The notes beneath the pieces were generated by a model. That model worked only from the letters and a program-made list of their open reading frames with translations. It was not told the DNA's origin and searched no databases. DNA of 64,000 nucleotides from Escherichia coli (GTDB taxonomy: Bacteria; Pseudomonadota; Gammaproteobacteria; Enterobacterales; Enterobacteriaceae): assembly GCF_044324875.1 (NCBI RefSeq), contig NZ_CP172185.1. The stretch is one strand, 5' to 3'. The translations under genes were made by a program, and so were the position numbers. Each line of letters opens with the position of its first letter. Position 1 is the first letter of the stretch. Below, one piece after another: positions 15,641 to 35,629 of the stretch.

Positions 15641-15654
15641 TTGATTCCTATCAA
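15641..15654. promoter_or_regulatory. FNR-consensus site upstream of yhjA
   Basis: ttgattcctatcaa is an exact TTGAT-N4-ATCAA match about 108 bp upstream of the yhjA start; yhjA is reported to be FNR/OxyR-regulated. Confidence 0.6.
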
Positions 15655-15761: not shown

Positions 15762-17159
15762 ATGAAAATGGTCTCACGTATTACCGCGATCGGCCTGGCT
15801 GGCGTCGCGATTTGCTATTTAGGGTTATCTGGTTATGTGTGGTACCACGATAATAAACGCAGTAAACAGGCCGATGTTCAGGCATCTGCTGTCAGTGAAA
15901 ATAATCAGGTTTTAGGCTTTCTCCGCGAAAAAGGATGCGACTATTGCCACACGCCTTCGGCAGAATTACCCGCCTATTATTATATTCCTGGCGCGAAACA
16001 GTTGATGGATTACGACATTAAGCTTGGATATAAATCTTTTAACCTCGAGGCCGTGCGTGCGGCTCTGCTGGCTGATAAACCCGTTTCGCAAAGCGATCTG
16101 AATAAGATTGAATGGGTGATGCAGTATGAAACCATGCCACCAACGCGTTATACCGCGCTACACTGGGCGGGTAAGGTGAGTGATGAAGAGCGGGCGGAAA
16201 TACTCGCCTGGATTGCAAAACAGCGCGCGGAATATTACGCCAGCAATGACATTGCTCCGGAGCATCGCAATGAACCGGTGCAGCCCATCCCGCAAAAACT
16301 GCCTACCGATGCGCAAAAAGTGGCGTTGGGCTTTGCGCTGTATCACGATCCCCGTTTATCGGCGGATAGCACCATTTCATGCGCTCATTGCCATGCGTTG
16401 AATGCGGGGGGCGTCGATGGCAGAAAAACATCGATTGGTGTTGGTGGCGCAGTGGGGCCGATTAACGCGCCGACGGTATTTAACTCAGTATTTAACGTTG
16501 AGCAGTTCTGGGATGGTCGTGCGGCAACATTGCAGGATCAGGCTGGTGGACCGCCGTTGAATCCGATTGAAATGGCGTCGAAATCCTGGGACGAAATTAT
16601 TGCTAAGCTGGAAAAAGATCCGCAGCTTAAAGCGCAGTTCCTTGAAGTCTATCCGCAAGGTTTCAGTGGCGAAAATATTACTGATGCCATTGCTGAATTT
16701 GAGAAAACATTAATTACGCCGGATTCCCCATTTGATAAATGGTTGCGTGGAGATGAGAATGCGCTGACGGCACAACAGAAAAAAGGCTATCAATTATTCA
16801 AAGATAATAAATGTGCAACTTGTCATGGTGGTATTATTCTCGGCGGACGTTCCTTCGAACCGTTGGGGCTGAAAAAAGACTTTAACTTTGGTGAAATTAC
16901 GGCGGCGGATATTGGTCGTATGAATGTTACTAAAGAAGAGCGCGATAAATTGCGTCAGAAAGTACCCGGTTTACGTAACGTTGCACTAACGGCACCGTAC
17001 TTCCATCGCGGTGATGTGCCGACGCTGGACGGGGCGGTGAAACTGATGTTGCGCTATCAGGTAGGCAAAGAGCTGCCGCAGGAGGATGTGGATGATATCG
17101 TAGCTTTCCTGCACAGTCTGAACGGGGTTTACACGCCGTATATGCAGGATAAACAATAA
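15762..17159 (+). CDS. yhjA: Cytochrome c peroxidase YhjA (Ccp), di/tri-heme
   Basis: 465-aa ORF with CXXCH heme motifs (CDYCH, CAHCH, CATCH) and N-terminal membrane anchor. Confidence 0.93.
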   Translation: MKMVSRITAIGLAGVAICYLGLSGYVWYHDNKRSKQADVQASAVSENNQVLGFLREKGCDYCHTPSAELPAYYYIPGAKQLMDYDIKLGYKSFNLEAVRAALLADKPVSQSDLNKIEWVMQYETMPPTRYTALHWAGKVSDEERAEILAWIAKQRAEYYASNDIAPEHRNEPVQPIPQKLPTDAQKVALGFALYHDPRLSADSTISCAHCHALNAGGVDGRKTSIGVGGAVGPINAPTVFNSVFNVEQFWDGRAATLQDQAGGPPLNPIEMASKSWDEIIAKLEKDPQLKAQFLEVYPQGFSGENITDAIAEFEKTLITPDSPFDKWLRGDENALTAQQKKGYQLFKDNKCATCHGGIILGGRSFEPLGLKKDFNFGEITAADIGRMNVTKEERDKLRQKVPGLRNVALTAPYFHRGDVPTLDGAVKLMLRYQVGKELPQEDVDDIVAFLHSLNGVYTPYMQDKQ

Positions 17160-34032: not shown

Positions 34033-34947
34033 TTATTGCGGCCAAAGCTGCTGGTGTAAAGACTCAACGACATCAGCAATACGCGGACCCATTCCCAGAA
34101 TCAGGTTTTGATCAACGGTGATAATGCGCTGGTTTTTCCATGCGGCAGTGTGGGTAATTCCGGCAATAGAACGTAGCCGATTAATATCGCCATCGACCAT
34201 TTGTGAGGTTACGACAATCACTTCTGGATTGGCCGCAATCAGTGATTCTGCACTGTAGCTTTTGTACTGCTGGTGGGTTGCGACGTTTTCTGCTCCGGCA
34301 AGCGAAAGAATGGCGTCCGCGACGCTGCCTTTACCGGCAACCTGTGGCGCACTTCTGCCTGCGGAGAGAATAAACATGGCTTTAACCGGGGCTTTTTTGG
34401 CCGCCACGTTTTGCTGTACTCGCTCCAGGCGTTGGCTGATTTGTGTCACCAGCGCGTCCCCTTGTTCAGGAACCTGTAACGTTTTTGCCAGTTGGCGAAT
34501 GTTGGCGTACATCTGCTCAAGGGTGGCAGGCACACGCGGCAGGGTAACGACGTTGACTTTCTGCGCCCGCAGCTGGTCGAGCACAATTTGTGGCCCGGCA
34601 TCCTGCCAGGTAATTACGCTATCCGGGCGAAGTGACAAAATGCCTTCGCTGCTGAGTTGTTTCCAGTAGCCAATATGCGGCAGTTTGGCGGTTTCTGGTG
34701 GGTAAGATGTCGTTTCATCGACACCAACCACGCGTTCGCCAGCGCCCATCGCGTAGATTAGCTCCGTCAGCGATCCTCCTGCGACCACGATACGTTCGGC
34801 AGCCGTTACGCTAAAAGCCCAGCTAAGAGCCAGTACTGCCGTAAACAATTTTTTTCGTTTTACCGCGGTCTTCGCGGCAGAGGCCACGGCTGAAATACAT
34901 AACGTCAGTGGGGAAAAAAGAAACGGCCTGGTGATGATCCTTGGCAT
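34033..34947 (-). CDS. chuT: Periplasmic hemin-binding protein ChuT (start uncertain; ORF extends to 35025)
   Basis: ORF 34033..35025; an internal ATG at 34947 (MPRIITRP...) gives 304 aa; a Fur-box-like sequence lies inside the longer N-terminal extension, favouring the shorter start; class III periplasmic binding protein. Confidence 0.8.
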   Translation of the reverse strand: MPRIITRPFLFSPLTLCISAVASAAKTAVKRKKLFTAVLALSWAFSVTAAERIVVAGGSLTELIYAMGAGERVVGVDETTSYPPETAKLPHIGYWKQLSSEGILSLRPDSVITWQDAGPQIVLDQLRAQKVNVVTLPRVPATLEQMYANIRQLAKTLQVPEQGDALVTQISQRLERVQQNVAAKKAPVKAMFILSAGRSAPQVAGKGSVADAILSLAGAENVATHQQYKSYSAESLIAANPEVIVVTSQMVDGDINRLRSIAGITHTAAWKNQRIITVDQNLILGMGPRIADVVESLHQQLWPQ

Positions 34948-34970
34948 AATATGAGAACTCTTATCAAGTT

Positions 34971-34989
34971 GAGAATGATCATGATTATC
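34971..34989. promoter_or_regulatory. Fur box at the chuT promoter
   Basis: gagaatgatcatgattatc matches 16 of 19 positions of the Fur consensus GATAATGATAATCATTATC. Confidence 0.6.
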
Positions 34990-35320
34990 ATTTGAGTTAT
35001 ATATGAAATACAACCGTCGATTCAATACGCACGGCGTTACAAGCGTATTTATTTTTGATTTTTATCAAGATGCTTCGTCAGCTAACGTTCTTGTTACCGA
35101 CTAAATTTCAGCGCGGGAAAAAGCTGAGAACCCAGAGATATCGAGGCTTGCAGAGCAAAGCGAAGAGGAAATTATCACTGTTAACGACAAAGTTTAGTGA
35201 TGAGGTCATGGGGGAATAACCATAAAAATAAAGTGGTTTTCAGGGCGCGGGATAGGTTTCATAACCCCCTGTTTATTGTGTTAATGGCGGTTAAAAAAAG
35301 CTTGATCATAAAAAATTGAT

Positions 35321-35339
35321 CGATAATAATTCTCATTAT
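35321..35339. promoter_or_regulatory. Fur box upstream of chuA
   Basis: gataataattctcattatc matches 16 of 19 positions of the Fur consensus; about 290 bp upstream of the chuA ATG. Confidence 0.6.
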
Positions 35340-35629
35340 CACGTTTGCGCTTAACAAAACACGACCATATGGATAACAAAACCATAGCATTTGCAAGGGA
35401 TAACGCACAGCGCTCTTCACTCCTGATGGGGCATATCGTTTTGCCTGACAAAGAGGGCGTGCTTTTGCGTATTTGCCGAGATACCAGGCAATTTCATGGG
35501 ATATAAACGCCTGTAAACTCACCCGGCGAATATTATCGCTCTGAATTTTAAATAAATTTATTTTTCGCCAGCCACCCCGGTATTAACCCAGGCAGCCAGC
35601 ATTTTTTATTTTCCTCATGGAGAATCGCT

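Follow-up and report, generated by a model that had tools for sequence, protein, structure and literature searches.

The known divergent control region between chuT and chuA in Escherichia coli, with a conserved candidate FNR site beside the chuT promoter

The window, meaning the whole 64,000-nucleotide stretch of Escherichia coli DNA that was analysed (contig NZ_CP172185.1 of assembly GCF_044324875.1), contains the gene order hdeB-yhiD, chuVUYXWT, chuAS and dctR-slp, in which chuVUYXWT and chuAS are divergent. Between the ATG of chuT (shuT) on the minus strand at 34947 and the ATG of chuA on the plus strand at 35630 lies an intergenic region of 682 bp (34948-35629), in agreement with the divergent control region of about 680 bp that had been proposed in a sequence-only reading of this DNA. 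The RefSeq annotation of the identical sequence places shuT and chuA at the two flanks and nothing between them. An 801-base query (34900-35700) matched 2236 of 5426 complete E. coli genomes, the top matches being 100% identical, and the same two genes flank the region in 2236 of these 5426 genomes. A 701-base query of the region was 100% identical to an ST38 genome. At 39.7% GC, the intergenic region is AT-rich. It is very probably the known divergent control region of the chu/shu heme-uptake locus, working as published for Shigella dysenteriae and pathogenic E. coli. The start sites of chuT and chuA used here (34989 and 35339) were transferred by homology from experiments in S. dysenteriae and EHEC Sakai, respectively. 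Along the window, the features are as follows.

34945 to 34947, minus strand: start codon ATG of chuT (shuT), as in RefSeq; it lies 42 nt downstream of the published transcription start site, and the codon aligned with it in other genera is the ATG of the receptor driven by the homologous promoter.
34948 to 34989, minus strand: chuT 5' UTR of 42 nt, a published RNA thermometer; in its hairpin UUCUC pairs with the AAGAG Shine-Dalgarno sequence.
34971 to 34995: chuT Fur operator, made up of a 19-mer at 34971-34989 (16 of 19) and an overlapping one at 34977-34995 (15 of 19); it spans +19 to -6 and agrees with the +1 to +19 site of Wei 2017.
34996 to 35025, minus strand: chuT promoter, with the -10 hexamer TATAAC at 35001-34996, an 18-nt spacer and the -35 hexamer TTGAAT at 35025-35020.
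35055 to 35068: candidate class I FNR site, inside the conserved 35044-35090 block.
35095 to 35255: variable inter-promoter spacer, with substitutions and indels and with no conserved ORF.
35256 to 35301, plus strand: conserved block upstream of the chuA -35 hexamer, ending in an A-tract at 35293-35299 (-46 to -40).
35302 to 35330, plus strand: chuA promoter from a promoter scan, with the -35 hexamer TTGATC at 35302-35307, a 17-nt spacer and the -10 hexamer AATAAT at 35325-35330; it fits the published +1.
35322 to 35340: chuA Fur operator, spanning -17 to +2 and lying over the -10 hexamer and the start site, the latter transferred from Sakai by indel-free alignment.
35339 to 35629, plus strand: chuA 5' UTR of 291 nt, from the Sakai dRNA-seq +1 and the indel-free alignment.
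35405 to 35467, plus strand: imperfect hairpin followed by UUUUG; the hairpin proper is 58 nt long (35405-35462, -23 kcal/mol), and its 3' arm and the U-tract are conserved.
35515 to 35555, plus strand: the +177 to +217 segment of Sy & Tree 2022, the same as in Sakai.
35570 to 35593, plus strand, approximate: CyaR pairing region, placed in PMC9002310 some 15 nt ahead of the thermometer and Shine-Dalgarno sequence, with bounds estimated from the published text; the same as in Sakai.
35601 to 35632, plus strand: FourU RNA thermometer with its hairpin at 35608-35625, in which UUUU at 35609-35612 faces the Shine-Dalgarno region (GGAG at 35619-35622).
35630 to 35632, plus strand: chuA start codon.

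Ten alleles were aligned: those of the window, Sakai, three other D/E/F-type strains, two B2 strains, two divergent E. coli and E. albertii. Conserved blocks in this alignment are 34948-35030, which holds the chuT leader, Fur box and promoter; approximately 35044-35090; 35256-35345, which holds the chuA promoter and about 45 bp upstream of it; and 35548-35660, which holds the last 80 or so nt of the chuA leader together with the first codons. The chuA leader from +30 to +210 is variable and carries indels. The A-tract that closes the block upstream of the chuA -35 hexamer resembles a proximal UP-element subsite. A 54-aa ORF in the spacer (35055-35219) was considered and rejected, as indels in other alleles break its frame, among them a 10-nt deletion in one allele.

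On the chuT side, 5' RACE in S. dysenteriae showed that the shuT transcript begins 42 nt ahead of its start codon (Wei, Kouse & Murphy 2017, PMC5458455), at a position that corresponds to 34989 in the window. The 42-nt leader, the Fur site at +1 to +19, U15/U16 and the start codon of S. dysenteriae shuT can be placed base for base on 34947-34989. The shuT leader acts as an RNA thermometer, and changes at U15/U16 destabilise its hairpin (PMC5458455); the chuT leader of the window reads GAUAAUCAUGAUCAUUCUCAACUUGAUAAGAGUUCUCAUAUU, with U present at both positions. Compared with the other alleles, which carry U at +22, the window carries C there (G at 34968 on the plus strand), within the hairpin loop. 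In the predicted hairpin, positions 14-18 pair with 29-33 at -5.8 kcal/mol, equal to shuffled sequences (z = 0.1). Since this energy is no better than that of shuffles, the fold of the chuT leader by itself would not have revealed the thermometer, and the Rfam search of the region returned no family for it.

The chuT promoter span of 36 nt agrees with the size implied by the 62-nt insert of the pT-lacZ construct of Wei 2017 (PMC5458455), and -10 and -35 hexamers of the chuT type have homologues in six other taxa. A longer chuT ORF can be read from a TTG at 35025-35023, and the sequence-only reading had argued for the internal ATG at 34947 instead. RefSeq uses the latter start. The TTG is half of the -35 hexamer, its first three bases, and lies upstream of where transcription was mapped to begin. 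Because of this position, the TTG is not transcribed from the chuT promoter, and the ATG at 34947 is therefore the correct start of chuT.

The comparison with other genera gives an indication of how this side of the region arose. ChuT homologues with 77-84% identity occur in Citrobacter freundii, C. koseri, Raoultella, Kluyvera, Dryocola and Klebsiella sp., where they sit in a co-linear receptor-T-W-X-Y-U operon. The single promoter region of that operon is homologous to the chuT side in E. coli, and the homology covers the -35 hexamer (TTGAAC), the -10 hexamer (TATA(T)AA), the Fur box, the ribosome-binding site, the ATG and the first 25 or so codons. In those operons, the promoter drives the gene of a receptor of about 710 aa and the T gene follows directly. 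In E. coli, by contrast, the receptor body is gone and its signal peptide is fused to ChuT, whereas a different receptor, ChuA (660 aa), is encoded divergently under its own promoter. Residues 1-25 of E. coli ChuT (MPRIITRPFLFSPLTLCISAVASAA) correspond to the receptor signal peptide elsewhere (e.g. MLPRISQRPFILSALTLCVSGAVSAA), and from about residue 30 onwards ChuT corresponds to the signal peptide of the T protein itself, followed by its mature part. ChuT/ShuT thus has a 30-residue N-terminal extension, with 304 aa compared to about 274 aa in the homologues. Because the homology runs through the ATG into the receptor signal peptide, the chuT promoter, leader and first codons are, judging from these alignments, the remnant of an ancestral receptor gene with a deleted body. 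Such an origin accounts for the N-terminal extension of ChuT/ShuT as well as for the "unusual" Fur site inside the leader, which is common to the other genera.

Within the conserved block next to the chuT promoter, TTGATTTTTATCAA at 35055-35068 is a perfect match to the FNR consensus TTGAT-N4-ATCAA (core 10/10), centred at -72.5 from the transferred chuT start site. Two perfect FNR sites are observed in the 64 kb against 0.15 expected, and among dinucleotide shuffles of the intergenic region a perfect site appeared in 61 of 20000 (chance 0.003). The other perfect site of the window lies 114 nt upstream of ccp/yhjA, and ccp is an FNR-dependent gene. None of the ten alleles, from E. coli and E. 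albertii, has a change in the box, and the 55-nt block around it is at least 94.5% identical in 2236 of 2236 chu+ complete E. coli genomes. Six other taxa have an FNR-type box with a core of 9-10/10, lying upstream of the base that corresponds to +1 at a distance of 69.5-73.5 nt. TTGA and ATC(A)A, the two half-sites, recur in 9/9 sequences from seven taxa, with seven different spacers and varying flanks, and the first half-site is in every case TTGA, of the FNR type, and not GTGA, of the CRP type. Conserved half-sites around a varying spacer are the footprint to be expected of a real operator. As for the distance, Wing, Williams and Busby are said to have found in 1995 that class I FNR sites work from -61.5, -71.5, -82.5 and -92.5, and the centre of the chuT box is one base off the second of these positions. 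A class II FNR promoter 41.5 nt from the box was also considered on either strand and rejected, no acceptable -10 hexamer being seen by eye.

The searchable literature yielded no description of an FNR site at 35055-35068 or of oxygen control of chuT. The shuT reporters of Wei 2017 end at -62 (PMC5458455), which excludes the box at -66 to -79, and those of Sy & Tree for chuA begin at +1 (PMC9002310); the box falls outside every reporter construct published for the region. On the chuA side, Barbieri et al. 2017 reported that an fnr mutant of APEC O1 has lowered chuA-lacZ expression and that FNR shifts a "chuA promoter" probe in EMSA. Their lacZ primers span the leader from +56 to about codon 27. 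The FNR site predicted in that study, TTGTAATGTTTCAA, was discarded as a candidate: it is absent from the window and the B2 alleles at up to two mismatches, and it was not found at up to three mismatches in 2.5 kb around chuA of APEC O1, where the perfect box is present. The coordinates given for it fall within the chuA coding sequence of the current APEC O1 record.

We put the chance that 35055-35068 is a functional FNR site at about one half. A reading that is somewhat less probable than even takes TTGATTTTTATCAA to be an AT-rich promoter element of chuT, UP-like or curved, or a site for some other protein, or else an FNR-type sequence kept inaccessible in vivo by nucleoid proteins. This would suit the AT-rich composition of the region, its horizontal acquisition and the silence of the searchable literature on oxygen control of chuT. 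It would also be in keeping with the survey of Myers 2013, in which few FNR promoters are of class I (of 23 that are activated, 19 have the site at -41.5 and one at -60.5) and 63 of 187 good predicted FNR sites in K-12 are bound, most of the silent ones being masked by H-NS, IHF or Fis. However, neither a promoter element nor a site of another type fits well with a perfect core of such low chance frequency both in the region and per 64 kb, nor with the retention of TTGA and ATCAA in six other taxa at the same distance from the homologous +1 while spacer and flanks vary, none of the nine sequences having GTGA. Likewise, the only other perfect site of the window precedes ccp, an FNR-dependent gene. 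The fuller proposal is that the chuTWXY(UV) promoter may be a Fur-repressed, FNR-activated class I promoter whose FNR site was inherited from the ancestral receptor-TWXYU operon and kept across Enterobacteriaceae, and which would switch on heme transport and anaerobic heme degradation when oxygen is absent; for this proposal the balance appears to be even.

On the chuA side, the +1 was mapped by dRNA-seq in EHEC Sakai and defines a leader of 291 nt (Sy & Tree 2022, PMC9002310). In the Sakai record, the chuA start (4391571) and the +1 (4391862) are 291 apart, and as the alignment of the window with Sakai has no indels downstream of the chuA Fur box, the +1 falls at 35339. As a cross-check, +273, the position of the U273A change of Sy & Tree, falls at 35611, which is the U at -19 from the ATG that was mutated by Kouse 2013. 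Seven substitutions separate the window from Sakai in the leader from +1 to +173, and the two are identical over 35512-35650, a span that includes the last 118 nt of the leader. Because of this identity, the Rho region, the CyaR site and the thermometer are present unchanged.

The sequence-only reading had suggested post-transcriptional control in the long chuA leader, by heme or by temperature, and the two halves of this suggestion fared differently. Temperature control is well founded. Rfam family RF02597 (shuA_thermo) matches 35601-35632 at 60.1 bits (gathering score 58; E = 9.5e-09), over its full length and identical to the family consensus; UUUU at 35609-35612 pairs with 35621-35624 in a 7-bp stem of -6.1 kcal/mol (z = -2.8). 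RF02597 is the element of Kouse et al. 2013, for which temperature-dependent translation was shown in both shuA and chuA, and the U273A change confirms the chuA thermometer (Sy & Tree 2022, PMC9002310). Further layers of leader control, by Rho-dependent termination and by CyaR activation, are also published (PMC9002310). Removal of +177 to +217 raised expression 9-fold and abolished the effect of bicyclomycin, and this segment was proposed to be the Rho loading site (PMC9002310); it is also the part of the leader that differs most between EHEC-type and B2-type alleles. The published Term-seq 3' ends at +129, +271 and +297 correspond to 35467, 35609 and 35635 of the window, and +271 is the Rho-dependent termination point. 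RyhB and Esr41 act at the chuA ribosome-binding site (PMC9002310). The +129 end falls five bases past the hairpin at 35405-35462, a point without discussion in Sy & Tree. Together with its U-tract, this hairpin (35405-35467) may be a weak intrinsic terminator or a pause site.

The heme-responsive half of the suggestion found no support. In structure prediction, which the sequence-only reading had proposed for the chuA leader, the FourU hairpin folds at z = -2.8 and the leader as a whole has no excess stability (z = -0.5). The search for a conserved structure or riboswitch in the leader gave an RNAalifold covariation term of 0.03 with one compensatory pair only, and no Rfam family besides RF02597 was found in the region searched. 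A heme-sensing RNA in the chuA leader was rejected on these three grounds. A regulatory leader peptide that tunes Rho termination, encoded by a uORF of 45 codons at 35369-35506, forms with the heme-sensing RNA a reading that we consider very unlikely. In 10/10 alleles the uORF is open (with ATG, or GTG in one), its length ranging over 34-53 codons and its N-terminal half being similar; its stop falls at +167, ten bases short of the +177 to +217 segment, and Sy & Tree consider it probable that an unknown factor modulates Rho at the chuA leader (PMC9002310). Against this, the uORF has no upstream Shine-Dalgarno sequence, its substitutions are spread over codon positions 1/2/3 as 15/12/17 with no coding signature, frameshifts alter its C-terminal half in two alleles, and the leader has no Pfam match in addition to the absence of any other Rfam family and of covariation.

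Two other possibilities were examined for the leader. A decayed hemP-like gene, as in Yersinia hemPR, was rejected: the Pfam HemP family was not matched, and the frame-1 ORF gave just sub-threshold, unrelated matches. The RfaH ops element GGCGGTAGnnTG does not occur at up to two mismatches in 34948-35629. An effect of RfaH on chuA is reported (Nagy 2001, as cited in PMC9002310), and this reported effect is therefore without a canonical ops element in the present region.

Compared to chuA (shuA) of EHEC and Shigella, the window is alike in promoter, Fur box and leader length and different in its chuA gene, which is interrupted by a premature TAG. This TAG allele is absent from the GTDB representative genomes, and over 6 kb no complete E. 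coli genome exceeds a 99.3% match to the window. Because chuA carries the stop codon, the gene that the rightward control elements now serve may be defective.

The two Fur boxes were scored against the 19-bp consensus GATAATGATAATCATTATC, which consists of three GATAAT-like hexamers. The box on the chuT side, GAGAATGATCATGATTATC at 34971-34989, matches at 16/19 on either strand, with the coordinates and score given in the sequence-only reading. The box on the chuA side, GATAATAATTCTCATTATC, matches at 16/19 on the plus strand and 17/19 on the minus strand; the earlier claim of a 16/19 match here is sound, but its coordinates (35321-35339) were one base too far left, the correct ones being 35322-35340. 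The first box ends 23 nt from the chuT ATG, and the second ends 289 nt before the chuA ATG, compared to an estimate of about 290 bp. No other site in the 64 kb comes within three mismatches of the consensus, for a shuffle expectation of 0.01. An exhaustive scan of the 64 kb found just three 19-mers of at least 15/19, all within the chuT/chuA region; the third, at 34977-34995 (15/19), overlaps the chuT box with a shift of 6 bp, as would be expected of a Fur hexamer array. Across the ten alleles, down to 79% identity, both boxes are unchanged except for one substitution in E. albertii.

On the published start sites as transferred by alignment, both operators overlap promoter or start (chuT, -6 to +19; chuA, -17 to +2), and the position at chuA is that of classical promoter occlusion. 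In shuT, the Fur site at +1 to +19, with three mismatches to the consensus, gives iron regulation, which is Fur-dependent and conferred by leader sequences and not by the promoter (Wei et al. 2017, PMC5458455). In window coordinates, this site is 34989-34971, exactly the first box. The direct ChIP-seq Fur regulon of CFT073 includes both chuAS and chuTWXYU (Banerjee et al. 2020, PMC7157518), so that the Fur ChIP proposed in the sequence-only reading as a check had already been published for an orthologue. Fur control on both sides is thus upheld, on orthologous sequences, by published reporter mutagenesis and by ChIP-seq. A reading in which the Fur-like 19-mers match by chance, in intergenic DNA that is AT-rich, and the long leader is a functionless spacer has next to no likelihood. 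The base composition and the poor conservation of the mid-leader and inter-promoter spacer would agree with it; against it stand the low number of matches expected per 64 kb, the constancy of the boxes among alleles, and the mutational, reporter and ChIP-seq data on orthologues, and published work has already refuted it.

According to the published work, the control of the region would proceed in two directions. Leftward, the sigma-70 promoter TTGAAT/TATAAC would start the chuTWXY transcript at 34989, Fe-Fur bound to the hexamer array from -6 to +19 would block this transcription, and the hairpin of the 42-nt leader would mask the ribosome-binding site at 25 C and open at 37 C. Rightward, the chuAS promoter TTGATC/AATAAT would start at 35339, with Fe-Fur covering the -10 hexamer and the +1. 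Within the 291-nt leader, Rho would attenuate transcription in a manner that needs +177 to +217 and terminates near +271; pairing of CyaR some 15 nt ahead of the ribosome-binding site would activate chuA, RyhB and Esr41 would repress it at that site, and the FourU hairpin would hold the leader closed at low temperature. To this scheme, the conserved FNR-type site at -72.5 may add oxygen control of an operon that encodes the oxygen-sensitive ChuW.

Control by Fur at the two promoters and by an RNA thermometer in each leader is already known and published. The proposals of the sequence-only reading were all previously known with the exception of heme sensing, which is without evidence here, and that reading re-derives the textbook regulation of a virulence-associated heme-uptake locus. 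Beyond the published picture, the present analysis adds the conserved FNR box and the recognition of the chuT promoter, leader and first 25 codons as a relic of an ancestral receptor gene. Novelty could come from the FNR box alone, as a further case of a known type of site and without a new mechanism.

Promoters of the feoABC type, which serve iron uptake, are Fur-repressed and FNR-activated. If the FNR box works, chuTWXY would be like them in combining Fur repression with FNR activation, and would differ from them in that the candidate chuT site lies at the class I position of -72.5 and not at -41.5. One class of FNR peaks in Myers 2013 is repressed by Fur. Under such control, anaerobic iron acquisition would be restricted to conditions of low iron and low oxygen.

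ChuW, encoded in chuTWXY, is an oxygen-sensitive radical-SAM heme degrader, and ChuS, the aerobic heme oxygenase, is a known target of repression by the FNR-induced FnrS. If the proposal is true, FNR would induce, in the absence of oxygen, both heme transport in the periplasm and anaerobic breakdown of heme by ChuW/X/Y. FNR at chuT and FnrS on ChuS would then form an oxygen switch between two routes of heme degradation, and direct oxygen control of the ChuW operon would complete the published regulatory logic of the locus.

The chuA gene of the window is interrupted by an in-frame TAG at codon 209 (36254-36256), which leaves a 208-aa plug fragment and a separate ORF of 437 aa. The allele of strain 746, whose sequence is the same as that of the window throughout the intergenic region, served for comparison and carries CAG at this codon. 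The TAG allele was present in none of the complete E. coli genomes searched, where the top match reached 99.0% over 201 bases, and it was not found among the GTDB representative genomes. Because the exact 208-aa ChuA product was called on 12 contigs of public runs (Logan/ENA), the TAG version is apparently a genuine null allele, specific to a lineage, rather than a sequencing error.

The identity to strain 746 is 100% over 1.46 kb (34703-36166), including the intergenic region, and the same intergenic allele also exists in ST38. Outside this segment, the two sequences diverge by roughly 1% on either side, and over a 6-kb comparison the complete genomes reach at most 99.3% identity to the window. 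Taken together, these sequence comparisons suggest that the chu locus is a mosaic, recombinant one, derived from a lineage missing in the complete-genome set.

Between the two divergent genes, three features can be seen on the chuA side:

35256-35301, upstream of the chuA -35 hexamer: block invariant in nearly all of the ten alleles compared
35369-35506, chuA leader: uORF beginning MDNKTIAFARDNAQ, open in 10 of 10 alleles, 34-53 codons
35405-35467, chuA leader: imperfect 58-nt hairpin followed by UUUUG

The upstream block contains a direct repeat, TGTTTA...TGTTAA, and ends in an A-tract at -46 to -40. In the leader, the end of the UUUUG-tailed hairpin coincides exactly with the published Term-seq 3' end at +129 (Sy & Tree 2022, PMC9002310). 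The hairpin could act as a weak intrinsic terminator or mark the 3' end of a leader-derived RNA of about 129 nt. The uORF stops just short of the Rho-dependence region (leader +177 to +217, window 35515-35555); neither a Shine-Dalgarno sequence nor a codon-position bias was detected for it across the ten alleles.

In Escherichia sp. MOD1-EC7003, an insertion of about 122 bp, with a sequence resembling an ERIC/IRU repeat, lies in the chuA leader (L020 156-277, approximately window 35505), immediately upstream of the Rho-dependence region. In E. coli WP4-S17-ESBL-03, homology to the window stops at approximately leader +20, and an IS26 copy (L009 3421-4190, corresponding to window 35359 onward) follows about 60 bp beyond; chuA and chuS are absent there, with a truncated rlmJ and gorA in their place.

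A second perfect FNR consensus, TTGATTCCTATCAA, is located at 15641-15654, and there is no third in the window. It lies 114 nt from ccp (cytochrome c peroxidase, 15762-17159), on the upstream side, and ccp is an FNR-dependent gene. Inspection by eye of the receptor promoters of Raoultella, Kluyvera and a Klebsiella sp. (L023, L024, L026) revealed a strong CRP-like site, e.g. TGTGATGAATCTCACA, with the FNR-like box some 40 nt downstream of it, and no counterpart of this CRP-like site was seen at that position in E. coli.

In Citrobacter, Dryocola and several further genera (L021-L026), a gene for a TonB-dependent receptor is the first of a co-linear receptor-TWXYU operon. Within chuT codons 1-30 (window 34857-34947), the N-terminal 25 residues of ChuT/ShuT show homology to this receptor's signal peptide, and the own signal peptide of ChuT comes after them, so that the predicted precursor has two signal-peptide-like segments in tandem. 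Because of this arrangement, the promoter, leader and start of chuT are, judged from sequence, a relic left by a deleted receptor gene.
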